Assembly: GCA_963802165.1 (NCBI GenBank)
Contig: CAWDHT010000010.1
Location: forward strand, 1,888 to 65,887
Source of the DNA: an uncultured Chloroflexia bacterium
GTDB lineage: Bacteria > Chloroflexota > Limnocylindria > Limnocylindrales > CSP1-4
Length of the DNA: 64,000 bases
Reading direction: 5' to 3'
The notes beneath the pieces were generated by a model. It was given only the letters and a program-made list of their open reading frames with translations, was not told the origin of the DNA and did not search any database. Made by a program: the position numbers and the translations under genes. Positions 41,681 to 60,073 of the stretch are shown piece by piece; the stretch's first letter is position 1, and the number at the start of each line of letters is the position of its first letter.

Positions 41681-41737
41681 GTACGTTTAAGGCGCGGCGA
41701 GCGAGGCGCGAGCGCCGCAACGCCCGTCGGATCCCCC

Positions 41738-42560
41738 TCAGGCAGGCGCCCGCACGTCCAGCACCCGGCCCCAGTGCAGGACCCGGACCGCCACCAGGAC
41801 GCCGAGCGCCGCCAGCACGAGGATCGCCGCCGCCGCGATCGAGGTCTCCAGGTTCCCCGCCTCGAACTCGGAGTAGACGACGAGCGGCATGGTCTGGGTC
41901 CGGCCGGCCACGTTGCCGGCGAACAGGATCGTGGCGCCGAACTCGCCCATCGCCCGCGCCCAGCTCATCACCAGCCCGGCAGCGAGCGCCCCACCGGCCA
42001 GCGGCACCGTGACCCGCCGGAACAGCTGCGGCTCGGAGGCGCCGTCCACGCGCGCGGCGTCCTCGAGGTCGTGGTCGACCCCCGCGATCCCGGCCCGCGC
42101 GGACCGGACGAAGAACGGCGCCGAGACGAAGACCTGGGCGAGGATGACGGCGAGAGCTGTGAACGCGATGTCCAGCCCGGCCGCGTCGAGCGCTCCGCCC
42201 AGCCAGCCGCGGCGCCCGAACACCAGCAGGAGCGCCAGGCCGGCGACGGACGGAGGCAGCACGATCGGCAGGTCCACGAGGGTCTCGACCAGCCACTTGC
42301 CGCGGAATTGGCGGCGCGCGAGCACGATCGCCAGCGGCAAGCCGAACACGACCGTGACCACGAGGCTGACCGACGTGGTGGCCAGGCTGAGCACCAGGGC
42401 GGGCAGCACCACCGACGAGCCGGCCACCGTCGGCAGCAGGCCACCGAGGATCGCCCGCGCGATGATCGCGAGGACCGGCAGGCCCAGGAACAGGGCGAAC
42501 AGGGTCGCCAGGGCGACAACCGAACGGGCCCCCCAGCGGCCGCCCCGCGTTGCGCCCAGG
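41738..42560 (-). CDS. modB: Molybdate ABC transporter permease; N-terminus ambiguous (possible frameshift)
   Basis: …FGATILFAGNVAGRTQTMPLVVY… is the ModB/CysT signature. The in-frame N-terminal extension (…LATLFALFLGLPVLAIIARAILGG…) reaches ~42560 with no clean start codon. Confidence 0.78.
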
Positions 42561-42580
42561 GCGGGTGAGCACGATGTCGC

Positions 42581-43417
42581 TCACGGTGCCGGCCCGAAGC
42601 CCATCGGCCCGAGGATCTCGCGCCCGCCCGGGCCGGCCATCCATGCGAGGAACGCCGCGGCCGCCTCCGGGTGCCGCGACTCCCGCAGCACCACCCCCGC
42701 ATAGGTGGCGCTGACGTTCGCGCCCTCGGGCACCTCGAGCGGCGTGACCCCGCTCGAGGCTCTCGCATCGGTCAGGTACACGATCCCGGCGTCCCCCTCG
42801 CCCAGCTCCAGCTTGGCGATGACGGCCTTCACGTTGGGTTCGCGTGACACCACGTTAGCTGCATAGGCGTCCGCGAAGTCCGCGGGGTAGCCCGGTTGCA
42901 GGGCGAGATTCGCCACGAGCCGCGAGGCATAGCCCGTGATGGGAACTCCCTCGCCGGCGGCGATGACGAGAACGCCCGGCCGGGCGAGGTCTGCGGGCGA
43001 CGCGAGCTGCGCCGGATCGCCGGCCGGGACGACGACCGCGAGCGAGTTGGTCGCGAATGCCACCGGCTCACCATCGGCGAACCCGCCGGCCACGAGCCGC
43101 TCGGGGTTCCGGGTATCGGCGGACAGGAAGACGTCGCCCGGCGCCCCCTGCTCGACCCTCGTGGCCAGCGCTGCCGACGAGCCCGTGGCCACGGTGATCG
43201 TGACTCCGGGCGTCGCGCCCTCGTAGGCCTTCGCCGCCTGCTCGAGCGCGCCCTGCAGCGACGCGGCGCCCAGGACGAGCACCTCCGTGGGCTCGCGTGA
43301 CGGGCTGGCCGATGCCGAGACAGGCGCTGTGGTCCCGGTGGTGGCCAGCGGGGAGCAGGCCGCGACACCGATGGCGAGGAGCGCGATGATCGGCATTGCG
43401 GCTGCGCGGACCCGCAC
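42581..43417 (-). CDS. modA: Molybdate ABC transporter substrate-binding lipoprotein
   Basis: Lipobox (IALLAIGVAAC) and ModA-like fold sequence (…VLVLGAASLQGALEQ…DVFLSAD…). Confidence 0.85.
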   Translation of the reverse strand: MRVRAAAMPIIALLAIGVAACSPLATTGTTAPVSASASPSREPTEVLVLGAASLQGALEQAAKAYEGATPGVTITVATGSSAALATRVEQGAPGDVFLSADTRNPERLVAGGFADGEPVAFATNSLAVVVPAGDPAQLASPADLARPGVLVIAAGEGVPITGYASRLVANLALQPGYPADFADAYAANVVSREPNVKAVIAKLELGEGDAGIVYLTDARASSGVTPLEVPEGANVSATYAGVVLRESRHPEAAAAFLAWMAGPGGREILGPMGFGPAP

Positions 43418-43852
43418 TCAGCGCGCCTCGCGCCGCGCCGGGATCTCGACGATCACGTTCGTGGCCTTGACCACCGCCACCGCCTCGTCGCCGACCCGCA
43501 GGCCCATGTCGTCCACGGCTTCCGCGGTCATCAGGCTGACCATCCGGTGGGGGCCTGCCATGATCTCCACGACCGCCGCGACGCGGTCCTTCTCGATCCG
43601 GGTGACGATCCCCGCCAGCCGGTTCCGCGCGGACCCGCCGATGATCGGGCGGTCGGATGCCTGGGCGCGGCGCTCGGCGAGGAGGCGTGTGACCTCGGCG
43701 ATCGGCACCATCCGCTGGCCGCCGGCGGAGCGCTCCGTTCGAAGGCGACCCTCCGTTTCCCAGCGACGAATCGTGTCTACCGACACCTGGAGCATCTCGG
43801 CCGCCTGGCCCACGCGGAGGAGGGCGTCGCGGCCAGTCGTGTTGGCACTCAT
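43418..43852 (-). CDS. MerR-type HTH + TOBE (molybdopterin-binding) domain regulator, ModE-like
   Basis: N-terminal HTH (LLRVGQAAEMLQVSVDTIRRWETEGRL) and a C-terminal mop/TOBE domain (…RNRLAGIVTRIEKDRVAAVVEIMAGPHRMVSLMTAEAVDDMGLRVGDEAVAVVKATNV…). It is the first gene of the mod cluster. Confidence 0.75.
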   Translation of the reverse strand: MSANTTGRDALLRVGQAAEMLQVSVDTIRRWETEGRLRTERSAGGQRMVPIAEVTRLLAERRAQASDRPIIGGSARNRLAGIVTRIEKDRVAAVVEIMAGPHRMVSLMTAEAVDDMGLRVGDEAVAVVKATNVIVEIPARREAR

Positions 43853-43986
43853 TCCTAGATAATAGGACGCGCTGCACATCTCTTCCATATGTATGTGCGT
43901 GCCATCGTCGGCTCACGGCCCCCGTCGCCCGGACGGCTGGCGGGGGGCTGGTATCCTTGCTCCCCGCGACGCCCCCGTCGCCACGC

Positions 43987-44062
43987 GCGCCTGTAGCTCA
44001 GTGGATAGAGCGTCGGCCTCCGGAGCCGAAGGTCGCAGGTTCGAATCCTGTCGGGCGCGCCA
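43987..44062 (+). tRNA. tRNA-Arg (anticodon CCG)
   Basis: Manual fold: acceptor GCGCCTG/CGGGCGC (one G·U), anticodon arm TCGGC-CTCCGGA-GCCGA and T-arm GCAGG-TTCGAAT-CCTGT, with an encoded CCA. Very similar to E. coli tRNA-Arg(CCG). Confidence 0.88.
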
Positions 44063-45524
44063 TTGCAACCTTTTCGGGCAGCGCCAGCGCCAAACCGTGC
44101 GCGTAGGCCGCCGAGGTGAGGCGAACCCCGACGATCTCGGGTCCCGCGATCACGATCCGCTCGTAGATGGCGTGCATCAGGTCTGCCCTCTCCTTCGGTA
44201 CGTCTGCCTGCTGGACTGACTCGGCGATGGCCTGCAGCCATTCGATCGCGCGCTGTGCCGGGACTCCGACCCCCGACCCCTCGACGAGCACGTCCCGTGC
44301 CTCCCGGAGCGCCTTCAGCCGGGCAAGGTAGGCGTCGTCCGCGAGGTCGCCAGCCGCGTGCTCCAGGGCGAGCTCGCGGATCCGCCGGTCGATCCGGGCC
44401 CGGTCCATCTCGACCGGCCGCCTCGTCGAGCCGAGGACCGCCACCACCGACGCGATCGTGTCGTCGTCGACGGTGATGCCCGCGACCTGCGCCAGCATCG
44501 GTCCCTCCCAGATCGCGTCGGCCAGACGGGCCTTGCGGCCCCAGGCTTCGCACGGGTTGACGTGGAGCTTGCGGTGGCGACCGTCGCCGAACGTCCCGTC
44601 GTTGCGGATGCGGAGGCCGCACACGCACTCGAGGAGGCCGCCCAGGAGGTCGACGCGGTCGTGGCGCTTCGCTCCCCCGCCCCGGGTCTTGCCTCGCCGG
44701 ACGTCTTCGACCCGCGCCCAGAGCTCGTCCGACACGGGCGGGTGCGTGCGCCACGGTGCCGGCTTTCGCGACTCTCGGTCGCTCCGCCGGTGGCGGACGG
44801 ATCCAGCCGTTGTAGAGCGGGTTCATGAGGATCATCCGGATCCGGCTCGCCGCGAGCCCCGTCTCGGCCTCGAGCTGGGTCGGCACTCACGTTGCCCAGC
44901 GCATAGCGCTCGAACAGGCCGACCGCGACCCCGATCGGTCTCCGGGTCGACCTCGAGTGTGTGCGGCGGCTCGGGCAGGCGGCGGAAGCCGAGGCCGGCG
45001 TGCCCGCCCGGGTCGTCGCGGTGGTCGAACTTGGCGGCGTAGCCGTCCGTGATCCGCTCCGACAGACGACGGCTGTACTTCTCCGCGCCGGCGGCCTCGC
45101 TGATCAGCTCGTCCCAGTCGTGCGGGTCGGACGACAGGATCCGACGGTCGCACATGACGAGGGCCACGCCGGCCGGGTGGAGGCCGTCCTCCAGCAGCTC
45201 GAGCGTCCGGCGGAGGTTGCGCTGCCAGCGGTCGGAGTAGCCGGCGAGGAGGAGGTCGAACGCACCCGCCTGCGCCTCGACGAGCATCTCGGTCATCGTC
45301 GCCGAGCGCCAGACCGTGGTGCCGCTGTGGGCGACCTGGAACACCAGCCCCGTGTCGACGAGGCCGTGGCGCTCGATGAACCGGTCCTGCTGCTCGCGCT
45401 GGCTGGCCGGTCCGAAGCGGTCGTACTGGCCGGCGGTCGACTCGCGGATCCAGCGGGCGACCCGCAGGCCACGCACGTCGTCGAGCGAGCGGGGCAGGCG
45501 ACGGAGCGTGCGCGGTTCCCTCAT
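43998..45524 (-). CDS. Large serine recombinase (integrase), broken by at least one frameshift
   Basis: Resolvase catalytic domain in 44832..45524 (…RVARWIRESTAGQYDR…). The recombinase zinc-ribbon and coiled-coil domains are in 43998..44735 (…CVCGLRIRNDGTFGDGRHRKLHVNPC…). The 3' end reads through the antisense of tRNA-Arg (…RPTGFEPATFGSGG…). Confidence 0.75.
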
Positions 45525-45708
45525 GCGGCCCCGGCCTCGCGCGTCGTGTCCATGACGACCACATTCGCTCTGTTTCGCGCAGCAGCCAAGCGTTCCCGGC
45601 GCATCTGGTCGGGACCGTCCGGATACCGGCCGTGGAGGGCTTCGACGTACCGAGCCAAGGCGGCGACGAGCGGATCACGCTCCACCGGCCGCCGCACCTG
45701 CTCAGCCA
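45521..45708 (-). CDS. Small protein (62 aa) translationally coupled to the integrase (ATGA overlap); possible recombination directionality factor
   Basis: MAEQVRRPVERDPLVAALARYVEALHGRYPDGPDQMRRERLAAARN… Its stop overlaps the integrase ATG. Confidence 0.4.
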
Positions 45709-45714
45709 TCAGCG

Positions 45715-45742
45715 CGAACAACCGTGAGAACCGCGAGAACCA
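45715..45742. repeat. Iteron-like direct repeats GAACAACC-GT-GAGAACC-GC-GAGAACC between the primase stop and the int operon
   Basis: Seen in the sequence. Candidate origin or regulator-binding repeats. Confidence 0.3.
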
Positions 45743-45819
45743 CACAGGGGTCCCGCACGGCCCCCTACGCGGCTGCGCCAAGCCAATAACCACGTAAACC
45801 GCACAGCTTCCATGCAGCC

Positions 45820-47949
45820 CTAGACCCCCTTCGCCTGCGCGGGCGCCAGCGCGGTTGTCGTGGTTGTTGTGGTTGTTCGGGTCAGCCGGAGCACCGTGGC
45901 CGGCCGCTTCGCCCCGGCGAGCCGAGTCTTGGCCCGCTCGGCGATGCCAAGCGACTCGAGGAGCACGACGGCGGCCTCGAGCTCGGCCGCGCTCCGGACG
46001 CCGAGCGCCCGCTTCGCGTCCTCCCACTTGAGCGGCCCGTCGGCGAGCTGCGCCCGCAGCGCATCGGCGTGGCGGTCCCCGGTCGAGCTGCCGAAGACGT
46101 AGGCGACGGATCGGACTGCGTACTCCCACAGGGCGCGGGCGGCCCGGAGGTGCGGGACGTCGATGACGGACGAGCGGTCGAGTAGCGCGTACACGAGCGC
46201 CAGGCGCACGATCTGCGCCTCGGTCCGCGCGGTCATGGCGGCCAGCAGGCCCCAAGGTCGGTACAGCGTCAGCTCGAGATACAGCTCCTCCCAGGCGTCG
46301 CGCGCCTCAGTCGACCAGGGCACCTCGCCCGGTGTCTGGCCCTCGGTGATAGCAGCGCCGACCGCGGCGAACAGGGCGGGGTCGACGTGCTCGACGGGCG
46401 AGGTTGGGAAGGGCACGAGGCGCGTGCGCCGGACCGCCAGCCAGATGAAGCGGTTGCCGAAGCCGTTGGCGGCGTCGGTGCCGCTGAGCCTCGCTCGGAG
46501 TTCGACTGGCGTGACGTGGGCCACGATGCCGACGTGGTGGCTGTGGACGATCGACTGCTCGCGCGCGAGGATCCGGCCCATCGGGACGCCGTCCCAGGCG
46601 TCGCGGACCATCGGGGAGAGGGTCGAGCCCTCGCGGGCCATGACTGTCAGCAGCCGGCCGAACTCGCTCTCCATGACGAGGGCCCGGGGTTCGCCCTGCT
46701 TCTCGTTTGCCTTGAGGTAGCCGACGAGCCCCTCGCCTGAGCCCAGGCCCGCGACGATCAGCTGACTCCACTCGGGGTACGCCCGGTTCATCACCTCGCG
46801 CGCGATCGAGCCCGCGGTGCCCTTGCGGCCGGTGCTGCTGTCGCCGACGAGGACGACGAACAGGTTCGGCGCCTGGGCGCTCCCCTGGTAGATGAAGCGC
46901 AGATTGCGCATGGCGGCGCCCACCGACGCGAGGAGCGTTCCGAGGATGCCGACCGGGTCGGCCTCGGTGTGCGGGGCGACGGCGCGCACGATCTCGCCGA
47001 GCGGGCCGTGGTAGACCGCGGCGTCGGGCGGCGCGGGCCAGCCGGTGGCCGCGGGCTCGGCTGGCGCCACGGCGGCCGCGGCCATAATCGCGGCCTCGGC
47101 CGCCGGGTCGGGAAGCGGCGCACCGAGGCGCGCAGGCGTGTCGTCCCAGGCCCGCTCGAAGCGCTCCCGGAGCTCGGGCTCCGACAGTGGCACCAAGAAC
47201 CGGGGTGCCAGGACGGCGAGGACCCCCGCCCATATCTCGTCGGTTGAGATGCCGCGCCGGTAGCGGCTCGCGATGTAGTCCCGGATCGCCTCGTAGCGGG
47301 CGCCCGCGTAGCCCGGCGCGGGCAGGTCGTACCCGCCCCGCCCGACCTCGAGCGCGTCGTCGTCCGCCGCCGCGGGCGCGACGACCGCCTGCGCCCAAGC
47401 GTCGGGCAGCGTGGCGATCTCGAGGCACGAGCTCGCGGGCTCGTACACGGCGCCCGAGGCGTGGACGCTGCGGGGTCCGATCACGTAGCCGGCACCCGCA
47501 CCCGAGCCCCAGCGTGTGACGTAGCCGAATAGCTGGCCGACGGGTCTCGGCAGCTCCGTCGGCCAGCGCAGGAACACGTGCTGGCCGTGGGCGGTGTTCG
47601 TCCGCAGCGTCGGCGGCAACGCCCCGAGTCGGCCCTCGAGCTCGGCGAGCCGCGCCACCCCGTCGCCGTCGACGTCGAGCACGAACACGCCGTCGGGGCA
47701 CACCAGCCCGTAGTTGGGCTCCGACCCGGCCGTGAGCAGCCTCCGGATGCGGTCACGGTCCCGTGTGTACTCGAGGAACCCCTGCCGCCCGATCGGGTGC
47801 TTGCCGGGGCTCCCGCACGCCGCCCGCTTCGGGCACCGGCAGGTGCCGTCGGAGTCTGCGCTCCACACGCTGAAGACCCCGAAGCCGCGGTCGGCGAACC
47901 AGGTCGCGGCGCGAATGCGGTCCTCGGCGGTCGGGCGCGAGCCTGTCAC
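45820..47949 (-). CDS. Bifunctional primase-polymerase (Prim-Pol) with a C-terminal DUF3987-like NTPase region; plasmid/AICE RepSA-type replication protein
   Basis: Prim-Pol N-domain (…AATWFADRGFGVFSVW…GKHPIGRQGF…YGLVCPDGVFVLDVDGDG…NTAHGQHVFLRWP…) and a C-terminal P-loop-like VLVGDSSTGRKGTAGS. It ends in a poly-Thr tail. The GTG start at 47949 overlaps the RHH gene stop (GTGA). Confidence 0.8.
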   Translation of the reverse strand: MTGSRPTAEDRIRAATWFADRGFGVFSVWSADSDGTCRCPKRAACGSPGKHPIGRQGFLEYTRDRDRIRRLLTAGSEPNYGLVCPDGVFVLDVDGDGVARLAELEGRLGALPPTLRTNTAHGQHVFLRWPTELPRPVGQLFGYVTRWGSGAGAGYVIGPRSVHASGAVYEPASSCLEIATLPDAWAQAVVAPAAADDDALEVGRGGYDLPAPGYAGARYEAIRDYIASRYRRGISTDEIWAGVLAVLAPRFLVPLSEPELRERFERAWDDTPARLGAPLPDPAAEAAIMAAAAVAPAEPAATGWPAPPDAAVYHGPLGEIVRAVAPHTEADPVGILGTLLASVGAAMRNLRFIYQGSAQAPNLFVVLVGDSSTGRKGTAGSIAREVMNRAYPEWSQLIVAGLGSGEGLVGYLKANEKQGEPRALVMESEFGRLLTVMAREGSTLSPMVRDAWDGVPMGRILAREQSIVHSHHVGIVAHVTPVELRARLSGTDAANGFGNRFIWLAVRRTRLVPFPTSPVEHVDPALFAAVGAAITEGQTPGEVPWSTEARDAWEELYLELTLYRPWGLLAAMTARTEAQIVRLALVYALLDRSSVIDVPHLRAARALWEYAVRSVAYVFGSSTGDRHADALRAQLADGPLKWEDAKRALGVRSAAELEAAVVLLESLGIAERAKTRLAGAKRPATVLRLTRTTTTTTTTALAPAQAKGV

Positions 47950-48170
47950 GGCACGGGATCCGCGGGAGCGCCCGGCCGCGACGTGGACGCGCTGCCGCGG
48001 CGCCCAGCAGCCGCGCGGACGCGGGCGCGGAGGCCCTGGACGACCAGGAACGAGGCCTGGTCGCGCGGCGTGCGGCACTCGGCACGGGCGAGGTCGCGCA
48101 AGGCCGCCTCTGCGTCCTCGGGGATGCGGATGGTGATCGTGGGCATGCCCCGATTGAACGTCCGCTCCAC
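47946..48170 (-). CDS. Ribbon-helix-helix (CopG/Arc-like) DNA-binding protein
   Basis: MPTITIRIPEDAEAALRDLARAECRTPRDQASFLVVQGL. It is coupled to the primase gene. Confidence 0.7.
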   Translation of the reverse strand: MERTFNRGMPTITIRIPEDAEAALRDLARAECRTPRDQASFLVVQGLRARVRAAAGRRGSASTSRPGAPADPVP

Positions 48171-48251
48171 ACGCCAGGTAAACGAGGCGAACGCGACAAC
48201 AACACGCCATCAATGCGCCAGGAATGCGCCATCCGCTCCGCGGCGAGGCGG

Positions 48252-48713
48252 CTACCCCTCGAGCGGCCAGCCCAGGCAGTGGTCGTGCAGGAAGCGCTGG
48301 AGGGAACGTGTCGCCACGTCCAGCCGCGACGCGAGCTCGGCCTGGGTCGGCCGGCGTCCGCGCTCGACTCGGAACGCCTCGTGCGCCGCCCGGACCGCGC
48401 TGGCCGTCAGCTGGCCCGTGCCCCTCGGGCGCCCGCGCCCGGGCTCTGGGGAGTTGCCGCCCGGCCGCTCGGCTGCCCGCCGCCGGCGCGGAGCGTCGGG
48501 CGCCAGCCCGAGGAGCTCGCGCAGCCCGCCCTCGCCGAGCCAGGGCTCGACGCGGTCCAGGTACTCGAGCAGGCCCTCGAACGTCGGCTGGGGGCCCTCC
48601 AGCCCGCTGAGGTGGTGGTAGAGGGCGACGACCAGGTCCAGGTCGAGCACGGGCCGCTCAGCTTCCACGCGCGTGATGACCGCGTGCATGAGCAGCGGGT
48701 CGAACCGGCTCAC
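48252..48713 (-). CDS. Hypothetical element protein with a C-terminal HTH-like segment
   Basis: 153-aa ORF; …PTQAELASRLDVATRSLQRFL…. Confidence 0.45.
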   Translation of the reverse strand: MSRFDPLLMHAVITRVEAERPVLDLDLVVALYHHLSGLEGPQPTFEGLLEYLDRVEPWLGEGGLRELLGLAPDAPRRRRAAERPGGNSPEPGRGRPRGTGQLTASAVRAAHEAFRVERGRRPTQAELASRLDVATRSLQRFLHDHCLGWPLEG

Positions 48714-48860
48714 GTGCCGGCCCGCCGTCCCTGCGATGGGCAGCCGCGGGCGGCGCTGGGCGCGGCTGCGCCGCTGGCGGGTTCGGACACGGGGAGCGGC
48801 CCTCCGGGGTGACGTTTCAGCCGAGAGGCTGGCCGGCGAGCGGGAGTTGCTTCGAGCAGC

Positions 48861-49706
48861 TCAGTCTAGGCCGCCGCCGCTAGTGTGAACAGGTGTTCTA
48901 TCCACGAGATTCGGCCGGATGGTGGGGCGTTGTCCACATGTTGGGCGGCCATGGGGGATGGGCGGTGGATGCTGCGGGGGCGACTCTGCGCGTAGCGGAG
49001 CCTCCAGCACATCGAGGTACTCGTCGGCGATCTCGAACTGGATCGTCACCACCGTGAGGGATGGCGTGACGTTCTCGAGCCAACCCCTCGCCCGCTTGAT
49101 GCACGCTGGCAGCTCGACGTCGGCCGCATCGGGCCCGCCGCCCTGGCCCCTCCGTACGAAGCCTCCAAGGTTGAGGCTCGCTCCACCGGCCGGGCTGCTC
49201 CGGTAGCGTCGCACGTGATCGGCGGCTCGCCTGCGACCCGATCCCTGCCCCACGCCCAGCGCCTCGAGACCCGTGACCAAATCCGTTAACTTGGACGGCG
49301 GATACGCCTCGCTGACCCAGATGGCGCGCAGGCGAATTGACTCGTCGTCAGGCATCCGCCCAGCTTGGTTCCGCTCAGGATCGAGGCTTCGCCAGCCCAC
49401 CAGCCCGGCTCGCCCCATGGCCGCCTTGCGGACGGGCTCGGGCACAAGCCGCTTGCCCCACCGCGACCATGCGAACCGGTCAAGGGGGATCCATACAAGC
49501 CGTTCGATCCTGGTCGCTTGGACCTCTTCCTTGCCTGGTTCGACCGTCACCGCGCTGCCTCGATCGAGTGGGCCCGCCTCCCCGACGACGCAATGACGGC
49601 TTGGCGACACAGAGGTGTTGGGGCCAGCTGCAGTTGCGCCCAGGGCGACGCAACGATGGCTCCGCGGCCAGTCTAGTGCGACGCGGTCAGCGTCGATCGG
49701 CCTCAC
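48861..49706 (-). CDS. Hypothetical protein (uncertain; may be frameshifted)
   Basis: Long ORF in a lower-GC stretch. Parts look protein-like (…DESIRLRAIWVSEAYPPSKLTDLVTGLEALG…, …TPSLTVVTIQFEIADEYLDVLEAP…). The C-terminus is low complexity. Confidence 0.3.
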   Translation of the reverse strand: MRPIDADRVALDWPRSHRCVALGATAAGPNTSVSPSRHCVVGEAGPLDRGSAVTVEPGKEEVQATRIERLVWIPLDRFAWSRWGKRLVPEPVRKAAMGRAGLVGWRSLDPERNQAGRMPDDESIRLRAIWVSEAYPPSKLTDLVTGLEALGVGQGSGRRRAADHVRRYRSSPAGGASLNLGGFVRRGQGGGPDAADVELPACIKRARGWLENVTPSLTVVTIQFEIADEYLDVLEAPLRAESPPQHPPPIPHGRPTCGQRPTIRPNLVDRTPVHTSGGGLD

Positions 49707-49817
49707 GATGGAGGTGTGCGAGGCGCACGGGATCGCTGTCCCTACGGCATGCTTCGAATGGAGCGCCGCGTGACGGGGAAGGTGGTCGCAGCGGCGCGCG
49801 TTTGAACGGAGGGGACG

Positions 49818-50039
49818 ATGGGTATTCCCAGTGATCTAGTGAGGACGTTGCGCGATGCGTATCAGCAAGCGCCCCATGGTGACGTCGCGGTCCGGATCCA
49901 CCTCTTCGGAATCGCGCACGCGGAACGCCTCGCCGGCGTGAACCGAAAGGAGCTATGCGCCGCGGCGGGGATCTCCGAGAACTGGGCCACGGAGATCCAC
50001 AAGGGCATGCGGTTGTCGGAGTACGTGACGCTCCGTTGA
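49818..50039 (+). CDS. Small HTH-like protein (73 aa) immediately upstream of the giant GHKL-DUF3883 gene
   Basis: …GVNRKELCAAAGISENWATEIHKGMRL… resembles a helix-turn-helix. There is a 7-nt gap to the next ORF. Confidence 0.45.
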   Translation: MGIPSDLVRTLRDAYQQAPHGDVAVRIHLFGIAHAERLAGVNRKELCAAAGISENWATEIHKGMRLSEYVTLR

Positions 50040-50046
50040 TCTGGGG

Positions 50047-53000
50047 GTGCCGACGGTTGGCTGGCCGATATCGGGTTCCGCGGTCGTCGTCTTGGCAGGT
50101 TGCCGCGTTTTCCTTCCATCGTGCCCAGACTGCGGCCAACGGTCTGGACCTAGCGAGGACGGCGAGCACGGCGAAGTCCTCGCGCGCCGGCGAGGGCAAG
50201 CGTTGACTGACCTGCTTGAGAGCATCCGCCGTCAGAATCTGGGGGCATACGAGTCGATGCCGTCACGCGTCGACGAGGACGCGAACCAGGAATCACAGAT
50301 CTCCCAGGACTACCGTGGCCGCCTGACCTTCGAACTTCTGCAGAACGCGGACGACGCGATGGCTGGAGGCGGCTTCACGGAGCGAATTGTCTTCCGGCTC
50401 ACAGACGACGCTCTCGAGGTCGGCAACACCGGTCGTCCGCTCTCGGACGACGACGTCCGTGGGCTCTGCGGGACGGGAGCGAGCAGCAAGACGGCGATCG
50501 CGGGCCGCCGCAGGGCATCAATCGGCCACAAGGGCATGGGCTTCAAGTCCGTCCTGGAAATCACCGACGAGCCGGAAGTCATCTCCACCACGATCGGCCT
50601 CAAGCTGGATGCGGCCGAGAGCCTCCCTGAGATCAACGCGGCGCTCGGTCGCCATGGGATGCCGCCAAGGAGACGGGTGCCGACCATGCGCCTGCCATGG
50701 CCTCTGGATCGCGAGCCCGCCAGTTGGGCCGCGGCGCAGAGGGACGGCCTGCAGGTGTTGTTCCGGTTCCCTCTTCGGCCGAGCCTGTCCAAGAGCCAGC
50801 GAACCCTCCTCGCCCGGCGGATCCTTGACCTGCCGGTCACGGCCGCGTTGTTCCTGAAGCACCTCGACGACGTCGAGGTGGATGTCAGTACGAGCGACGT
50901 AAGGGGTCGCTTCCGGTGGCGTCTCAAGCGAGAACGCTTGGCGCACGGACAGTGGATCCATACGCCCGGCTTCGGCGACTCCGGCGTCTACCGCATTCGT
51001 GTGTCCGGTGCAGATGGCGTCGATCTGGCATTCCTGGTCGCACACGACGCCGACGTGGAAATCGGCTCGAACCGCAACGGGCTGGATGTCGCGTCATGGG
51101 ACGATGTCGATCTGACCGAGGTCTCGATCGCAGTGCCATGGTCACTGGCTGAGAAACGTCCATCCAGCGCGGGCCTCCCGGCGAACTGGGCGAAGTTCCA
51201 CGTGTTCCTGCCGACGGCCGAGGCGGCGCCCTACCCGCTCCTCATCAATGGCGCATTCAGGACGGACCTCTCTCGCCAGGAGGTGCGCGTTGGCGAGGAT
51301 GACCTCGACTACAACCGGCACCTGCTCCGGGCGACGGCCCGCGCCTTCGCTCAACGGCTGATCCCGGCGCTCACGGACGAGGGTGTGGCGGTCCCTGACG
51401 TCCTCGCTCTCGTCGACCGGTCGGCCGCGGCCGGCTCACGCTCCACGGGGAGTGCCGCCGCGGTGCTGCACGAAGCGATGCGCCGGGAGCTTCGGGACGT
51501 TGAGTTCATCCCGGGCGAGGACGGGCTCAGGCTCCGCATCTCGGAACTCGTGGTCCCGCCGCCCACATCGTCCGCGGGGCTCGGGGCCGCGTTCCGAGCC
51601 ACCCTGCCTTCGGATGCGACGTTCGGCGACCAATGGTTCCCGACCGGCGACATGTGCGACGCACGGATGGCGTCGATCCTTGTCGACTTTGGTGCGCGGC
51701 CACTCAGCATCCGCGAGACGGCCTCGGTCCTGGCCGGAGCTGACCCGATCCGCTCGAGGCTCCAGGCTCATCCGACACTCGGTGAGCGCCTGCAGGTGGA
51801 TCCGGTGCTGGATGTCCTCGGGCGCCTCTGGGCGGAGCTGCGTGGCCGCGAACGCACGGAGTTGGAGCAAGCGGCCCGTGAGTCGCCGCTGTTTCCGGTC
51901 GGGCTTGAGGCCGGCGTCACGCGTCGCGCTCGGTCCGACTCGATCCAATGCTTCTACCCGCCGCGGACGCTGGTCGGAGAGATCCCCCTCACCGGACTGC
52001 AGTTCATGCTCCAGCAGGTGTGCTGGGGCGACCTGACAGCCCGCGAGCGCACCGAGCGCCTCCATGACGAAATGGCCGCCTGGCAGGCGCTGTTTGGGAT
52101 CCGTGAGTTCAAGTTCCCGGACGTGATGCGGGCCAGCGTCTTCCCGGCCCTGGAACTCGAGCCGGGCGACGAAGGCAAGGCGCTCCGCGTCCGGTTGCAG
52201 GATGCGAATGTCATCGCCGCGATCTGTCGGCTCGCTGGCCGGACGGCCAACGCCAGTAGCCCGCTGCCATACGAGCGCCTCGGCACGAACCGAGCCCTGT
52301 TCAATCTCTCGCGGCTGCGCGTTCAGTGCCGCAACCGTGCCAACGACATCGAGCGGTGGGAGCCGGCGTACCGCGTCTACTTTGGCTCGGACTGGGTGGG
52401 GGAGGATTCTGTCGAGCACGTCCTCGACGCGATGCGTGAGCGCGGTCTCCCGACCCCCGACATTGCATTCCTCGCGCCACCCAATGAGTTCGTTCAACGG
52501 CTGGCCGAGGCGCGCCACATCCGGCCGGTTGCGGCTGATGACCAGATTGCTGACAACATTGAAGTAGGTGAGCAGGAGGACGAGGACGCCGCCCTAGAGT
52601 CGAACGACCGAGAGCGAGCGCTGAACTTCTTCACCTGGCTGGGCGTGAACCGTGTAATGCGGCCGGTCTCATTCCACGACGTGATGGACGCGGGCTCGGG
52701 ATGGCTCAGCACGGCTGGCCTCTCGAGACCCAAGGGCTGGGCATTCGCCGACCTCGGTGGTATCTGGGACGAATACGCCCGCTATGTCGCGGATGCCCCT
52801 GACGACGACGGCGCGGCCGCCACACGCTACTACTACGGACTCCACGACCTCGAGCACGTGTCCCCTCTGCTGTCGGCGGCGAGCCGCGACGAGACGGGGG
52901 TTATCGCCAGGGCCCTGTACGCCCACCTTGCGCGGGGATGGCCGCAGCTGAGTGCCTTCGCAAAGCTCGTGGTCGCCGTCAGCAGTGACAAGGGCATCAG

Positions 53001-55056
53001 CAAGCGCACGCCGCCCAAGCCGAACGACGAGGAGCTGCGGCTCAGGACAGACAACTTCTGGCTCTACCGGTTGCGGAGTGCACCCTGGGTCCCCTCGACC
53101 CAGGGCCCGCGCGCTCCGGGTCGGGTGTGGATGCCTTCGGCCGAGATCGATCGCCGGTTCGGTCGTCGTGGAGCCATCGCGGGCGAGCTCATCCCGCTCC
53201 TGGAGGTGGACCACGGCGTGCCCTCGGGCCGCGTGGAGACCCTCTCGCAACGGCTGGGCATTCGAGGTGACCTCAGCCCAGCGACATTCCTCGAAGCCGA
53301 TGCCCGAGACCTACTTCGACGGCTCAAGTTCCGATTCGAGGGACCCGCTGCGGACGGCAGCCTTGATGAACGACAGCTCCGTGAGGTCGTGCGGCCTGCC
53401 TATCGAAACCTGCTCGAGTTGCTGGCCGGTCCGTCGGGCGACGACGAAGACATGGATGCCAGTGGGCAGGACGCATCGCTGGGGGATGAGCCTGTCCTCG
53501 TCCGCGACGGCCGCGACGGTCTCCGGTTCGTGTCCGGGCACGCGAGCTACTACGTGGCTCGGAGCGGCACCCTGATCCGGATCGGCCAGCCGCCGATCAA
53601 CACCTTCATCCTTGAAACGTCAGTGACGGCTCGACGTGCGTTGCGGCAGTTGGGGATCCGGACGCTCGAGGACGTCCTCACGTGGTCGCCGGAGCCCGGC
53701 GCGATCGCGCTCGACGAAGCTGAGCTCAACGCGTTCCACACCGGCCTGGCCGAGCTCGCGCCGTACATCCTTGCGCGTCTCCGGGTCGACCGAAGTGACG
53801 ATCGGACCGCGTCGCGCGACGCCACGCGGCTGCGGGAGCTCCTAGGGGCGATTACGCCGGTCGAGTCGCTTGCACTACGGTGCGACCTGGATGGTCAGAC
53901 ACTGGTCGACAGCGGGAGTCGGGACTCCCATGTCGCTGAGCGCGAAGACGGTTCTCTGGAAGCGTACGTTCGGTGGGGCTTGTCCGGCTGGCCGCCGTCC
54001 CGCGCTGACGCGAACGCCCTGGCAAGCGTCTTCGTGGATGCGATGGGTGCCGGTGCGTTCGAGGCTTATCTGGCGCTGATCACGGCCGATGACCCGGGCG
54101 CCCGCCAGCGCCTGTTGACATATGCCGGCGCGACGACGAATCTCCGCGAGTTCCGGGACCTGCTGTACGGCCCGATGCCAGTCGAGACTCCGACGTCCAC
54201 CGTGGCCGCCTGGGACGGCGGACGCACCATCGTCATTGACGATGTCGAGTGGCTCGGCGGGCCGACAGCACCCCCGGACGACGGCGGCGGTTCCAGGACG
54301 GGAAAGATCCCCCTGTACCGCCCTGAGCAGCTGCAGTTCGCCGGAGGGCCGACGATCGTAGCCGGGATCACCCCCGTCGACGCGAGCGCCGCCAAGGACA
54401 AGGGTGACGGGACAGCCAGTGGTCGGGGCGCATCCTGGAGTCGAACCGGCACCGACCTGGATGAGCTCAATGCCGTGGGGATGTCCGTGGCCCTCACCTT
54501 CGAGCGCCATCGCCTCCAGCTCGCGGGTACGGCGGATGCGGCGATCTTCGTGTCGGGAGCGCCAGTCGACGATGCGTTCGTGTTCGACGTGTCGACGCCC
54601 ACGGCCATCAAGGCGGCGCTTCGCGAGTCAGGGCGCTTCCGACAGGCGCATGCACAGCTCGTCTCGCTCGGGCTATCTGCTGACTACCCGGGCTTCGACA
54701 TCCTCACCCTTGATCCGGTTGATGCGAGCAACGATCGGTTCATCGAGCTGAAGTCCTCTGGTGTCGACGCGCAGGTGCAGGCGATGACCTGGAACGAGTG
54801 GAAGACGTCACGCGACAGCACCCTGCGAGAGCACTTCTATCTCTATCTGGTGTCGAACCTGCGCTCGGACCTTGGTAATCGCTCGCCGTACCTCCGGGCG
54901 GTCCGGGATCCGTTCGGGTCACTGCTCAGCCGAGAGCTGGTGGAGGACGACCCGCGACGCGTGATCCAACTCCGGGTCCAGGAGTTCGAACGGGCAGAGC
55001 ATCAGGCCATCAACGTGTTGCCCGTGGGATCCACGGGACTCGGGGCAGGGTCGTGA
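50047..55056 (+). CDS. Giant (1669 aa) sacsin/NOV-type protein: N-terminal GHKL (HATPase_c_3-like) ATPase motif plus C-terminal DUF3883 (restriction-endonuclease-like PD-(D/E)xK) domain
   Basis: Bergerat-fold signature GRLTFELLQNADDA near the N-terminus. The C-terminus (GFDILTLDPVDASNDRFIELKSSGVDAQVQAMTWNEWKTSRDSTLREHFYLYLV) matches the DUF3883 pattern (D…fIEvK…ltwNE…Y.LYvV). The true start may be the TTG at 50203, which has a GAGGG 6 nt upstream. The ORF is intact over 5 kb. Confidence 0.85.
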   Translation: MPTVGWPISGSAVVVLAGCRVFLPSCPDCGQRSGPSEDGEHGEVLARRRGQALTDLLESIRRQNLGAYESMPSRVDEDANQESQISQDYRGRLTFELLQNADDAMAGGGFTERIVFRLTDDALEVGNTGRPLSDDDVRGLCGTGASSKTAIAGRRRASIGHKGMGFKSVLEITDEPEVISTTIGLKLDAAESLPEINAALGRHGMPPRRRVPTMRLPWPLDREPASWAAAQRDGLQVLFRFPLRPSLSKSQRTLLARRILDLPVTAALFLKHLDDVEVDVSTSDVRGRFRWRLKRERLAHGQWIHTPGFGDSGVYRIRVSGADGVDLAFLVAHDADVEIGSNRNGLDVASWDDVDLTEVSIAVPWSLAEKRPSSAGLPANWAKFHVFLPTAEAAPYPLLINGAFRTDLSRQEVRVGEDDLDYNRHLLRATARAFAQRLIPALTDEGVAVPDVLALVDRSAAAGSRSTGSAAAVLHEAMRRELRDVEFIPGEDGLRLRISELVVPPPTSSAGLGAAFRATLPSDATFGDQWFPTGDMCDARMASILVDFGARPLSIRETASVLAGADPIRSRLQAHPTLGERLQVDPVLDVLGRLWAELRGRERTELEQAARESPLFPVGLEAGVTRRARSDSIQCFYPPRTLVGEIPLTGLQFMLQQVCWGDLTARERTERLHDEMAAWQALFGIREFKFPDVMRASVFPALELEPGDEGKALRVRLQDANVIAAICRLAGRTANASSPLPYERLGTNRALFNLSRLRVQCRNRANDIERWEPAYRVYFGSDWVGEDSVEHVLDAMRERGLPTPDIAFLAPPNEFVQRLAEARHIRPVAADDQIADNIEVGEQEDEDAALESNDRERALNFFTWLGVNRVMRPVSFHDVMDAGSGWLSTAGLSRPKGWAFADLGGIWDEYARYVADAPDDDGAAATRYYYGLHDLEHVSPLLSAASRDETGVIARALYAHLARGWPQLSAFAKLVVAVSSDKGISKRTPPKPNDEELRLRTDNFWLYRLRSAPWVPSTQGPRAPGRVWMPSAEIDRRFGRRGAIAGELIPLLEVDHGVPSGRVETLSQRLGIRGDLSPATFLEADARDLLRRLKFRFEGPAADGSLDERQLREVVRPAYRNLLELLAGPSGDDEDMDASGQDASLGDEPVLVRDGRDGLRFVSGHASYYVARSGTLIRIGQPPINTFILETSVTARRALRQLGIRTLEDVLTWSPEPGAIALDEAELNAFHTGLAELAPYILARLRVDRSDDRTASRDATRLRELLGAITPVESLALRCDLDGQTLVDSGSRDSHVAEREDGSLEAYVRWGLSGWPPSRADANALASVFVDAMGAGAFEAYLALITADDPGARQRLLTYAGATTNLREFRDLLYGPMPVETPTSTVAAWDGGRTIVIDDVEWLGGPTAPPDDGGGSRTGKIPLYRPEQLQFAGGPTIVAGITPVDASAAKDKGDGTASGRGASWSRTGTDLDELNAVGMSVALTFERHRLQLAGTADAAIFVSGAPVDDAFVFDVSTPTAIKAALRESGRFRQAHAQLVSLGLSADYPGFDILTLDPVDASNDRFIELKSSGVDAQVQAMTWNEWKTSRDSTLREHFYLYLVSNLRSDLGNRSPYLRAVRDPFGSLLSRELVEDDPRRVIQLRVQEFERAEHQAINVLPVGSTGLGAGS

Positions 55057-55117
55057 TCGACGGTTCGGGCGTGCTCGACCGCAAGCTTCTCCGGTTCGAT
55101 GTCAGCGAGGGGCGCGC

Positions 55118-56323
55118 GTGCGACCGGCCGCCCGCCGCGCGGCCCGGTGGCTCGTCATGACCGCCGGCTCCGAGAGCGCGCCCGCCTGCACGGTCTGCAC
55201 GCGCCTGCCGATGGAGGAGCCCGTCGCGATCCGCTGGCCTGCCCCGGTGGAGGCCGACGAGTGGGCGCATGACGACCGCATCCGAGGCGCACTCCTCGGA
55301 CTCGCCCTCGGCGACGCACTCGGTTCGCTGGCCCACGCCGGCAAGGCTGAGGCGGTCGACCCGACCCCGGGCTCCCTCCGCACGGGCGGCGCCACGCAGC
55401 TGGCGCTCTTCACGGCCGAGGGCGTGCTGCGGATGCAAGTCCGCTTTGCCGCCAAAGGGATCGGCCCGGCCTGGGGCGTCATCCGCCACGCGCTCGACCG
55501 CTGGATGGTGACCCAGGGCCGGGAGCCGAACACCACGTTCGCGTGGCAGCCCGAGGCCTGGCCGGACGGATGGCTTGTCCGGCAGCACCGCCTGCACCGC
55601 CGCGTGGATGGCTTCGGGGCGACGGTCGAGGCGCTGGGCGTCCAGGCCGACACGTGGGAGGGCATGCCCGAGCGCCACGTGGCGACCTCGCTCCCGAACA
55701 CCAGCAGCGGAGCAGGGGCGCTGGTGCGCGTGCTCGGCGCCGGGCTGGCCGTACTGCCGAAGGACGCCACGCTTGTCGGCTCGATCGCCGCTGCCATCAC
55801 GCACGGTGGCGCCGACGGGTATCTCTCGGGCGGGGCCCTCGCTCGGCTGGTGGCCGGTCTCGTGGCCGGCGAGCAGATGGACGACGCCATTGCGGCGACT
55901 TCCGCAGACCTGGCGGGCTGGGCTGGCAGCGGGCCCGTGCGCACCGCGCTCTCGGGCGGCGCCACGACCGGCCCATCGAGCGCCACCCGGGCCCTCGCCG
56001 CCGCCATGAGCTACGCGACCTTCGGGGTTCCCGATGACCCGGTCGTGATCATCGGGCGGGCGATCGCCGCCGGGGGGACGGCGGCTGGGGTGGTCGCCGG
56101 CGCCGTGGCGGGCGCGCGACTCGGCGCCTCCGCGTTCCCGGCTGGCTGGCTCATGGCCCCGGACGTCGCCGACTTGCTCGAGGAGATGACCCGCGCCTGC
56201 TCGGCCGCCCACCGCACGTGGGTCATGGGGCGCGACCTGCCGGGCTACGACCAGCCGCCCGATATGCCGTTCGACGACGATCCGGCGGTCGCGCTGCTCT
56301 GGCCGCGCTTCCCGGGCTGGTAG
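55118..56323 (+). CDS. ADP-ribosylglycohydrolase (ARH/DraG family)
   Basis: DDRIRGALLGLALGDALGS N-terminal motif and a later …ITHGGADGYLSGGALA… block typical of ARH enzymes. Co-oriented 60 nt downstream of the giant gene. Confidence 0.85.
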   Translation: MRPAARRAARWLVMTAGSESAPACTVCTRLPMEEPVAIRWPAPVEADEWAHDDRIRGALLGLALGDALGSLAHAGKAEAVDPTPGSLRTGGATQLALFTAEGVLRMQVRFAAKGIGPAWGVIRHALDRWMVTQGREPNTTFAWQPEAWPDGWLVRQHRLHRRVDGFGATVEALGVQADTWEGMPERHVATSLPNTSSGAGALVRVLGAGLAVLPKDATLVGSIAAAITHGGADGYLSGGALARLVAGLVAGEQMDDAIAATSADLAGWAGSGPVRTALSGGATTGPSSATRALAAAMSYATFGVPDDPVVIIGRAIAAGGTAAGVVAGAVAGARLGASAFPAGWLMAPDVADLLEEMTRACSAAHRTWVMGRDLPGYDQPPDMPFDDDPAVALLWPRFPGW

Positions 56324-56654
56324 AGGGGGTTGGGGCTAGACGACCGGACCCGCGCAGCTGGCAATGCCGATGCAGACCGCGCTACGCGTGCCAACGTGGG
56401 CGCCCACCGGCCGTCCCGGGCGGGGTCGTGGGCGGGCCCTCAAGGCACGCCACCTGGTACTCAGGCGCCATGTGGCACCCGCGGACGAAGACGTACGGGA
56501 CGCGGGTGGTGGGCGTCGCACCACCGGCGCGGCCTGCCCCGCCCGCCGAGGTACGGGAGCTCGACGCCGCAGGCCGCACAGTGGCGCGGCGGCGCGAGGC
56601 TCGCACGGAGGGCCATCGTCGCGGACGCGGCCATCTCCTCGAGCGCGTCAGCGC

Positions 56655-57128
56655 TCACGGATCGGCCACTGGCGAAAATGCGCCAAGAATCCGCGAAACC
56701 CGGCCGAGGAAACACAGTCGCGCGGCGCAGTCAGCACGGACGTGCGTCTCCACATGGGCTACCCCACCCCGGTCGGTCGACGCACCCTTCGTCGAGTTGC
56801 ACGATCGACAGAGCACCGCGGTGTTGCCGATGTCGAACGGCGCACCGCCAGCGGCGAGCGGGACGACGTGGTCGACGGTCAGGTCGGCGGCAGGGTGAGC
56901 GGGGCGCTGGTAGCCAGGGCACCAGTTGCCGTGCTCGCCACGCCAGGCACGCAGCACGCGGGCGCTGAGCCGTTGCCAGGCCCGCGTGCTGTAGAGGGCG
57001 TTGTGCCGGCTGCGGTTGGACTGGCGGGCGTGCTCGGTGCAGCGACTACCAGCGCGGCTGGTAACGACACCGCAGACCGTGCACAGCTTCACCCGCGAAT
57101 CGTCGGCGGGCTGGCTGGCGCGGTCCAT
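56655..57128 (-). CDS. HNH endonuclease
   Basis: CTVCG…C…H…, LTVDHVVPLAAGG, NTAVLCRSCNSTK: a classic ββα-Me HNH motif set. Confidence 0.85.
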   Translation of the reverse strand: MDRASQPADDSRVKLCTVCGVVTSRAGSRCTEHARQSNRSRHNALYSTRAWQRLSARVLRAWRGEHGNWCPGYQRPAHPAADLTVDHVVPLAAGGAPFDIGNTAVLCRSCNSTKGASTDRGGVAHVETHVRADCAARLCFLGRVSRILGAFSPVADP

Positions 57129-57276
57129 ACGCTCGCAGTGCTAGGCCTGCCGGGCCGCCCTTGGGAGGCCAGCAGGTGCGTCGCCGCTCGAAGGCGATCG
57201 TCACCTACTCTCGTCGCAGCACGTCTCGTACGCCGGCGGGAGCTTTCCGCAGACGACACCAGCGCGGAGGAAGGCG

Positions 57277-57891: not shown

Positions 57892-57967
57892 CCGATTGAC
57901 GAGAGGCCGCCCCTCGCTTCACGTGCGTGCTGCGCGTCGCTGGCAATCGCAACATGAGGGGAAGATC

Positions 57968-58354: not shown

Positions 58355-58417
58355 GAGCTTGGGTCAGGGCCGGCACAATCTGACCTCACGTAGCGTCTGT
58401 TGGGGCGGAGGACACCG

Positions 58418-59667: not shown

Positions 59668-59681
59668 CGCGGTCAGTTAGG

Positions 59682-59930: not shown

Positions 59931-60073
59931 GACGCCGGGCTCACCCGGCTCCGGGTGATGAGCCCCAGGACCACCGCCGTGACCGCGAGGATCGCGCCGA
60001 TCTGGTCGGGCGCGAGGTTGAGGCCGAACGCCACGACCAGGGCGATGACCGCCTGGACGAGGGCGAGCACCAT
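59929..60073 (-). CDS. Micro membrane ORF (47 aa)
   Basis: MVLALVQAVIALVVAFGLNLAPDQIGAILAVTAVVLGLITRSRVSPAS. Coupled to the LuxR-HTH gene. Confidence 0.3.

Follow-up and report, generated by a model that had tools for sequence, protein, structure and literature searches.

The window, a 64-kb stretch of DNA from an uncultured Chloroflexia bacterium (assembly GCA_963802165.1, contig CAWDHT010000010.1), contains an intact tRNA-Arg(CCG) gene whose 3' end is overlapped by a convergent gene encoding a serine recombinase. The tRNA lies on the plus strand and all features on the recombinase side on the minus strand, which is the coding strand throughout 44.06-48.9 kb according to GC content by codon position. 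Beyond the recombinase gene follow a 62-aa open reading frame (ORF), a repeat region, a gene for a Prim-Pol replication protein and a gene for a ribbon-helix-helix (RHH)-like protein whose stop overlaps the GTG of the Prim-Pol gene (GTGA). The original prediction, made from the letters of the window, had read this arrangement as an integrated element at tRNA-Arg (large serine recombinase, coupled small ORF, RHH-Prim-Pol/DUF3987 module), and this description is supported by the comparisons given below. The intact tRNA was recovered by ARAGORN, the small ORF does overlap the recombinase ATG, and the recombinase frame runs antisense through the tRNA to a stop at 43998-44000 in the D-arm, with 65 of the 76 tRNA bases read antisense. 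The frame is split as had been noticed, with three breaks rather than just two frames.

The recombinase gene was compared with protein families and, through an intact homologue (P0122), with known structures. Its frame order is f0->f2->f1->f0, with +1 insertions near 44939, 44879 and 44797. The window protein matches the Pfam Resolvase family (PF00239, E 2.6e-9) and, weakly, the Recombinase family; for P0122 the Resolvase match has E 1.4e-10. The catalytic Ser29 lies within the motif RESTAGQ, in which R27, E28 and S29 are invariant (62 homologues). The protein database holds 727 homologues, the intact ones being 500-507 aa long and 68-92% identical to the repaired window protein. The AlphaFold2 (AF2) model of P0122 consists of a catalytic alpha/beta domain, a long helix, a helical domain, a Cys/His beta ribbon and long helices, with beta strands at residues 297-334, long helices at 336-452 and a beta hairpin at 453-468; residues C299, C301, H320 and C324, invariant in the homologues, fit a zinc-ribbon domain with an inserted helical (coiled-coil) motif. 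In Foldseek, the whole length of this model could be aligned with structures of serine integrases, Bxb1, PhiC31 and LI among them (E 2e-13 to 1e-6); the Bxb1, PhiC31 and other integrase complexes gave E 2e-13 to 3e-10, and the matches include 4bqq (N-terminal and recombinase domains) and 4kis. On this modelled fold, the window recombinase is a large serine integrase.

Alignment of the recombinase with GTDB species genomes gave 80 related loci (loci and contigs are designated by L numbers), all 80 of them from Candidatus Limnocylindria/Limnocylindrales or 'Chloroflexia' metagenome-assembled genomes (MAGs) of the Chloroflexota. In many of these loci, the host sequence past the tRNA is collinear with the left flank of the window (36.6-41.7 kb), at 68-80% identity. 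Since both the related loci and the syntenic flank are those of Limnocylindria, the host is a Chloroflexota genome and not an actinomycete. A tRNA-Asp(GTC) gene (30143-30219, minus strand) lies 13.8 kb to the left of the tRNA-Arg gene, and a tRNA-Asp/tRNA-Arg pair, 4-9 kb apart, recurs in many related loci, which confirms the orthology of the locus. A ModB-ModA-MerR/TOBE block (41688-43987) separates the tRNA-Arg gene from the conserved flank in the window and L003 only; in other genomes the conserved flank reaches within ~100 nt of the tRNA (e.g. L079).

The tie between recombinase and tRNA is shared by the family. The last 21 codons of the window recombinase are antisense tRNA, and nearly all intact homologues end in ...ALALPEKVxMARPTGFEPATFGSGGRRSIH, the antisense translation of the tRNA (a tail also written ...ARPTGFEPATFGSGGRRSIH). 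In P0122 the tRNA-encoded tail (residues 483-507) has low model confidence and is predicted to be disordered. The 3' end of the recombinase gene overlaps a convergent tRNA-Arg gene in 55 of the 80 loci (45 with anticodon CCG, 5 with TCG and 5 with TCT), the TCG and TCT users being more divergent recombinase clades; such recurrence means that the overlap is not due to chance. A scan of metagenome contigs with the exact 41-nt tRNA 3' end as query found the recombinase abutting the tRNA in 51 of 104 evaluable contigs.

Wherever the tRNA 3' end occurs in the loci, it belongs to one of three classes of attachment (att) site. In the attL class, which includes the window, the recombinase C-terminal coding sequence is followed by TGGCGCGCCCGACAGG and then by the rest of the tRNA. 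In the attP-like class, the same recombinase end and 16-mer are followed by TGTTGGGCGCGCGTTAGCAACCT or variants of it in place of the tRNA (L007@2768, L040@11445, L040@14831, L049, L054, L057@11413 and L067@3124). In the attR class, an unrelated flank is followed by the 16-mer and the same P arm (L040@3777, L057@4890, L067@695 and L075@2365). The block TGGCGCGCCCGACAGG is common to attP-like and attR junctions, and the block shared between att sites is just 16-17 nt long.

The attP junction has the form ...CCCGACA-GG-TGTTGGGCGCGCG..., and its arm AGGTTGCAATGGCGCGCCCGACA and the P arm, read as its reverse complement, agree at 19 of their 23 positions, with GG at the centre. This GG corresponds to the tRNA-strand CC that opens the 3' strand of the T-stem (window 44047-44048), and identity between the site classes ends exactly there. 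Judging from this symmetry and from the end of identity, crossover would take place at that CC dinucleotide. The P' arm supplies the last 14 nt of the tRNA and 9 nt of recombinase coding sequence, and the tRNA is therefore intact and the recombinase ORF runs into it; after integration the last 14 nt of the tRNA plus the CC core would thus be derived from the element. Short imperfect inverted arms, a central dinucleotide and hybrid attL and attR sites constitute the classic serine-integrase layout, of which the window has attL alone. Over the typical length of an attB site, attL differs from attB only past the tRNA end, so that the site could be used again; arrays of elements in tandem, joined by attP-like junctions, were indeed found in L007, L040, L054, L057 and L067.

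The original prediction had proposed a search for a downstream duplication of the tRNA end; none was found within the window. Serine integrases do not leave the tRNA end behind as a long direct repeat; the attR form expected on the plus strand is P arm-CC-TGTCGGGCGCGCCA. Neither attR nor a P arm was detected up to position 64000 using direct repeats, mismatch scans with 32-, 17-, 16- and 15-mers, the P-arm consensus and gapped local alignment. Only chance-level matches were returned: that at 54548-54564 (2 mismatches) is inside the TmtA ORF described below, and that at 61627-61643 scores 17, below the random best of 23-32. In several relatives, the first gene beside the P arm of attP or attR encodes an 82-aa helix-turn-helix (HTH) protein. 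On the P side of attP and attR, ~45-60 bp from the crossover, a conserved motif CCCGATCGAGGGCCG was also observed (e.g. L040 3835-3850, L067 3180-3195); it is probably a DNA site, its reading frame not being fixed (L016 differs).

Horizontal movement of these elements is indicated by the incongruence of identities: with L065, the integrase DNA shares 93.6% identity and the flanks only 76-78%, and with L056, the p153-RHH segment shares 95% and the flank 78% (p153 being the 153-aa protein gene of Table 1). Delimited elements in relatives measure ~6.5-12.4 kb. L016, a 12,518-nt MEGAHIT contig, has identical 141-nt ends and carries the recombinase followed by attP, which is consistent with a circular 12.4-kb form. 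Apart from the integrase with attP, this contig has the small ORF and genes for a P4-type primase-like protein, an HNH protein and an HTH protein. Host-like genes are present on it as well, namely Ppx/GppA, an FAD oxidase, a transposase fragment and a large cyclase/ATPase/TPR regulator. As for genomes free of the insertion, with which a comparison had been proposed, one candidate empty site can be offered: L113 is syntenic with the window flank and has a major facilitator superfamily transporter gene and a sulfatase gene after the tRNA.

A different sequence was seen at the same tRNA end in several contigs, as a repeat-rich insert of ~1.3 kb or shorter (GAGTCGCGACATNNGTGACACATGAGTCGCG...) placed directly at the tRNA-Arg 3' end (L051 at 4946-6354, L098, L100, L150, L166, L170, L187 and L204). 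In L051 it sits between the tRNA and an integrase, and it possibly represents another small element that uses this site.

The 62-aa ORF accompanies the integrase in most loci and encodes a predicted two-helix hairpin, for which Pfam, PHROG and PDB fold searches gave no match; its product is most likely a partner of the integrase, and possibly a directionality factor. The Prim-Pol/DUF3987 protein named in the original prediction was found as described: PF09250 matches with E 9.5e-26, the C-terminal half is DUF3987 (E 3e-15), PHROG matches are to primase/helicase families, and 527 homologues were collected. Among isolated phages, Prim-Pol/DUF3987 has only distant relatives, in actinophages. The RHH-like ORF is conserved jointly with Prim-Pol in a subset of loci, and its assignment is weak (RHH_5, E 1e-3, under the Pfam cut-off). 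The iteron-like repeats were likewise confirmed, as three AACC units at 9-bp spacing (45720-45741) with two more near 45788 and 45797. An inverted GGTTGTTGT array (x2.8, 45853-45877) lies inside the 3' end of the Prim-Pol gene and encodes a poly-Thr tract conserved in Prim-Pol homologues. This run of eight threonines near the C-terminus is kept down to ~67% identity, and the GGTTGT repeats encoding it mirror the AACC repeats between the genes; its conservation may be at the DNA level, as expected for an origin inside a rep gene. The 9-bp AACC/GGTT repeats are confined to loci with a window-type Prim-Pol, including L002, which has a different recombinase, and are a candidate for the cognate replication origin.

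Window-type Prim-Pols occur in just seven of the 80 genome loci, plus L003; amino acid identity exceeds 80% in L003, L017, L045, L046, L053 and L056. The remaining loci have distant Prim-Pols or a RepAM-like gene, the modules being mosaic. L002 (GCA_040384205.1, JAWVGZ010000049; 9774-13997) has the AACC/GGTT repeats, a Prim-Pol 86% identical in amino acids and a homologue of the small ORF, the serine recombinase linked to them being a different one, of 526 aa, and no tRNA lying within 10 kb. This module adjoins genes for DruA, a PDDEXK protein and a DEAD-helicase/MZB protein, i.e. Druantia-like cargo. A 71%-GC viral contig (L004, IMGVR_UViG_3300048839_001048) encodes a Prim-Pol N-domain 68% identical to that of the window, fused to a different helicase half and neighboured by genes for a virion structural protein, a RecE-like exonuclease and a Holliday-junction resolvase.

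Taken together, we consider it likely that the element in the window is one member of a previously undescribed family of site-specific integrative elements found in Limnocylindria, working as follows. The large serine integrase would recombine an attP of ~48 bp (two 23-bp imperfect inverted arms around GG) with a tRNA-Arg gene, the crossover falling on the CC with which the 3' strand of the T-stem begins. The last 14 nt of the tRNA and, after them, the 3' coding end of the integrase would come with the P' arm, restoring the tRNA and leaving the integrase ORF antisense into it. An attB-like half-site would be retained in attL, at which further elements could insert to form tandem arrays. The coupled 62-aa protein would act with the integrase, possibly as a directionality factor, and the excised circle would be replicated by the RHH-Prim-Pol/DUF3987 module on the adjacent 9-bp repeats. 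A slot between conserved arms would carry variable cargo, here a Tiamat-like gene and an ADP-ribosylglycohydrolase gene. That the exchange of the integrase tail, or the 62-aa protein, sets the direction of recombination is speculative.

Several points weigh against this interpretation. It rests on comparison, recombination, excision and replication being predicted events. The AF2 model of P0122 has moderate confidence (predicted local distance difference test score, pLDDT, of 69), and the Recombinase domain (PF07508) that follows the long alpha-E helix scores 20.0-20.5 bits against a Pfam cut-off of 21.1. The 62-aa protein has no detectable similarity to known directionality factors, the circular form of L016 is a single assembly signature on a contig with several host-like genes, and the absence of attR from the window leaves the right end of the element undefined. 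In addition, the left arm is collinear with that of L003 at 86.5% identity, against 87.4% for core genes, and its GC content (44-49 kb) is the same as that of the host; the window copy may thus have been inherited vertically for a long time.

These last points could also be explained by a long-fixed, vertically inherited region, effectively core genome, in which the integrase is a decaying relic. The collinear left arm at core-like divergence, the lack of compositional contrast over 44-49 kb, the frameshifted integrase and amidase, the missing attR and the concentration of indels in the integrase gene (see below) agree with it. Against it, the element modules are far closer to those of distant genomes than the flanks are, integrase substitutions keep a third-position bias much like that of Prim-Pol, by which any inactivation would be recent, and the enrichment of frameshifts in long-read MAGs suggests that consensus errors contribute. 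We regard such a fixed region as somewhat improbable, though a serious contender. In the original prediction, core-like conservation at this tRNA had been named as evidence against an insertion; the left arm of L003 does show it in part, and fits long residence of the left arm in the lineage. As evidence against an insertion, this conservation is outweighed by the junctions, the arrays, the circular contig, the candidate empty site and the incongruent identities.

The state of the window copy was examined through its frameshifts, two being implied in the amidase gene in addition to the three +1 frameshifts of the recombinase. Intactness of integrase genes was classified by tblastn frame count, which is a rough classifier, a longest-open-frame test being misleading in GC-rich DNA; by this count frameshifted copies occur in ~20 of 36 long-read MAG loci vs 4 of 37 short-read loci. 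Relative to L003, 17 indels that are not multiples of three were counted in 1462 nt of recombinase and none in 2130 nt of Prim-Pol. Recombinase substitutions at the three codon positions number 11/10/70 vs L065 and 53/58/130 vs L003, and those of Prim-Pol 80/60/193. An ancient pseudogene was rejected on the third-position bias, from which it follows that any inactivation must be recent, and uniform sequencing error was rejected on the concentration of indels in the integrase. The imbalance between long-read and short-read loci suggests that consensus errors play a part. The frameshifts would reflect either a recent, real inactivation or consensus errors at a locus that is heterogeneous and present in several copies, and we slightly favour real inactivation; the window copy is probably immobilised, unless the frameshifts are assembly errors.

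Table 1. Positions of the tRNA-Arg gene, the attachment site and the genes and blocks of the element in the window
Feature	Position	Strand	Evidence or remark
tRNA-Arg(CCG), intact	43987-44062	+	ARAGORN
Large serine recombinase (integrase) gene, three frame breaks	43998-45524	-	Pfam; AF2/Foldseek of homologue
Putative attL (B arm - CC - P' arm)	44024-44071		From attP-like and attR junctions of relatives
B arm of attL	~44024-44046
P' arm of attL	44049-44071		TGTCGGGCGCGCCATTGCAACCT
62-aa ORF	45521-45709	-	Stop coupled to recombinase ATG (ATGA)
Iteron-like region, candidate replication origin	45716-45877
Prim-Pol + DUF3987 replication protein, 709 aa, intact	45820-47949	-	Pfam, PHROG
RHH-like protein, 74 aa	47946-48170	-	Weak RHH_5 match
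153-aa protein (p153), unknown family	48252-48713	-	Kept in left arm
Variable cargo slot	48861-56323		No similarity to other loci in interval
281-aa ORF of unknown function, cargo slot	48861-49706	-
End of conserved left arm	48905-48990		Similarity to L003, L056, L036, L053, L073 and L043 ceases at 48907-48986
Predicted Tiamat-like TmtA, 1669 aa	50047-55056	+	PADLOC, Pfam
ADP-ribosylglycohydrolase	55118-56323	+	Cargo slot
Conserved right-arm block with HNH endonuclease gene (56655-57128)	56474-57150	-
Conserved right-arm block with HTH protein and membrane peptide	59681-60127	-
HTH protein, 82 aa	59682-59930		In right-arm block 59681-60127
Membrane peptide, 48 aa	59927-60073		In right-arm block 59681-60127
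Amidase-like (endolysin-type) gene, three frame segments	60116-61130	-	GC-frame plot, weak Amidase_2, three-frame translation
Last block common to related elements	61124-61613	-	Small membrane-protein genes 61127-61357 and 61347-61472, and upstream region

Since the conserved blocks of Table 1 are shared with the interiors of other elements, the element spans at least 44047-61613, and the block order in the window is the same as in L007. In L202, the tRNA-Arg gene is followed by a ~50-nt remnant of the integrase 3' end fused to a segment 87% identical to window 61544-61613, a deletion derivative, which suggests that this block is close to the right end of the element. To the right of 61668 lie genes for two membrane proteins (one DUF7224) and an ATP-binding cassette (ABC) ATPase. 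Comparison of the window right end with the host flanks beyond attR of relatives gave no usable match, and neither did comparison of the 199-aa and 430-aa membrane proteins with all loci. In the left arm, p153 has no Pfam family match and a C-terminus that resembles a helix-turn-helix by eye.

The original prediction had also placed here the left edge of an accessory island that includes candidate defence genes, and this is supported. PADLOC TmtA models match the 1669-aa protein with E 7.4e-59 and, over residues 53-1282, with E 9.9e-56; its Pfam domains are a Sacsin-type ATPase and NOV_C, and its gene is predicted to be a Tiamat-like anti-phage gene. The ADP-ribosylglycohydrolase gene directly follows it (50047-56323, plus strand). 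The equivalent slot is occupied by NERD and AAA ATPase genes in L003, and by DruA and helicase-MZB genes in L002. In the right arm, the HNH endonuclease has many PHROG matches, and L007 has an intact amidase+LysM gene at the position of the split amidase of the window. The amidase gene is flanked by membrane-peptide genes (59927-60073, 61127-61357 and 61347-61472), an arrangement resembling a lysis cassette. Phage-like genes of the right arm and of relatives also include a sigma/HTH regulator and, in L057, a beta-helix protein.

A right arm of this kind could come from a cryptic or defective prophage, the remnant of a temperate phage with a serine integrase. Amidase (with LysM in L007), holin-like peptides, HNH, sigma/HTH and beta-helix genes speak for such an origin, as does the relative of the Prim-Pol N-domain on the viral contig with virion structural protein, exonuclease and resolvase genes. 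Pfam and PHROG searches of the window ORFs and of four delimited relatives found no capsid, portal, terminase or tail gene, the delimited elements are merely ~6.5-12.4 kb long, and the integrase family has no match in IMG/VR and only faint matches, no close relatives, in isolated phages. A prophage origin is thus considered improbable.

The small size, the integrase at one end, the primase-helicase replicon with its repeats, the regulators, the HNH gene and the cargo slot between conserved arms would suit a phage satellite or mobilisable island of the type of P4 or of the phage-inducible chromosomal islands (PICIs), which would direct its own integration, excision and replication, depend on a helper for transfer and carry a defence hotspot. 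The lack of autonomous transfer genes among the ORFs scanned points the same way. P4 and PICI elements use tyrosine integrases, no helper is known, and general Pfam/PHROG scans, made without dedicated satellite models, gave no match to capsid-redirection, small terminase or packaging genes; nor was a packaging signal recognised. A satellite nature would add a hypothetical transfer route, and is compatible with an integrative element as proposed above rather than exclusive of it; we hold it to be possible but unlikely.

The original prediction had suggested an actinomycete integrative and conjugative element (AICE) or a cryptic prophage, and neither was borne out: all 80 loci are from Limnocylindria/Chloroflexota, and the defining genes were not found in the window ORFs or in the four delimited relatives scanned. 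Taking the defining features of AICEs from te Poele et al. 2008 (PMC2440964), the window family has an integrase with an adjacent attP at the 3' part of a tRNA gene and a replication gene (RepSA/RepAM/Prim-Pol type), and one relative (L007) has a DUF3631/RepAM-like fragment. Serine recombinases are found in ~14% of AICEs, eight of them from Mycobacterium in tRNA-Leu (Ghinet et al. 2011, PMC3218068). The host is nevertheless not an actinomycete, and scans of the window ORFs and of these four relatives recovered no gene for an FtsK/SpoIIIE-domain Tra, a relaxase, Spd, Nudix Pif or GntR Kor. An actinomycete-type AICE is very improbable.

The use of tRNA genes by serine integrases, which the original prediction had called less common, is indeed rare and has computational precedent. 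Mageeney et al. 2020 (TIGER, PMC7192596) placed 14 of their 297 islands with serine integrases at t(m)RNA genes, a use that by their account had not been reported before and for which 'experimental proof will be required'; the Mycobacterium cases were called rare (PMC3218068). In a literature search, no paper joining 'Limnocylindria' with 'integrative' was found. The element family is a variety of serine-integrase genomic islands in which the mechanism of tRNA targeting is unusually clear. By a small degree, we lean toward regarding it as the first well-resolved family of large serine recombinase (LSR) elements specialised on tRNA genes, with attP in the integrase 3' end, a usable attL and retargeting among CCG, TCG and TCT isoacceptors. 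With the use of tRNA genes by serine integrases regarded in the literature as rare and unproven, the family provides hundreds of natural examples, with a crossover mapped to the dinucleotide, three tRNA-Arg isoacceptor specificities and natural attP, attL and attR sites. It makes the question of tRNA integration directly testable, supplies candidate short-site integrases for a conserved gene, and represents a mobile, defence-carrying type of island in Candidatus Limnocylindria, an abundant uncultured soil lineage. The window itself is more ordinary, as one possibly disabled copy with a Tiamat-like gene.

Among known systems, the Mycobacterium tRNA-Leu AICEs (PMC3218068) and the TIGER islands (PMC7192596) are likewise computational cases with a serine recombinase at the edge of a tRNA-inserted island; compared by description, the window family differs in its phylum, its use of tRNA-Arg isoacceptors and its lack of a conjugation module, and in that the crossover is mapped to a dinucleotide with attP, attR, arrays and a putative circular form. 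The recombinases of the phiRSM type, which integrate in tRNA-Ser (PMC3218068, PMC7192596), are also serine-family enzymes acting at a tRNA 3' end, but they are small, resolvase-like, belong to filamentous phages and have no large C-terminal domain, whereas the window protein is an LSR of ~500 aa. More generally, the window element resembles AICEs in its tRNA integration and Prim-Pol/RepAM-type replicon, and phages in its amidase, holin-like peptides and HNH gene.

The integrases of Bxb1, PhiC31, Listeria A118/LI and TP901-1 share with the window family a resolvase-type domain with a nucleophilic serine, a length of ~500 aa and C-terminal regions of zinc-ribbon and helical type; the predicted fold can be aligned with theirs from end to end, and the attP arms are in both cases imperfect inverted repeats around a non-palindromic dinucleotide. 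The window family differs from these phage large serine integrases in sequence (12-19% identity, Pfam Recombinase below threshold), in its Chloroflexota host and in its target, a tRNA gene instead of a protein-coding or intergenic site. Its attP also overlaps its own stop region, and the last ~21 residues differ between the integrated and excised forms.

Rousset and colleagues are said to have described, in 2022, defence hotspots in P4-like satellites and PICIs. These elements are small tRNA-linked islands with an integrase at one end, a primase-helicase replicon, regulators and an anti-phage slot, as is the window element, which differs in having a serine and not a tyrosine integrase, with no capsid-hijacking or packaging genes recognised. 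The archaeal integrases of the SSV1 type are tyrosine recombinases with attP inside int, and their gene is split in two by integration. In both systems the att site overlaps the integrase coding sequence and the gene is altered by integration; in the window family, just the extreme C-terminal tail, predicted to be disordered, is exchanged.

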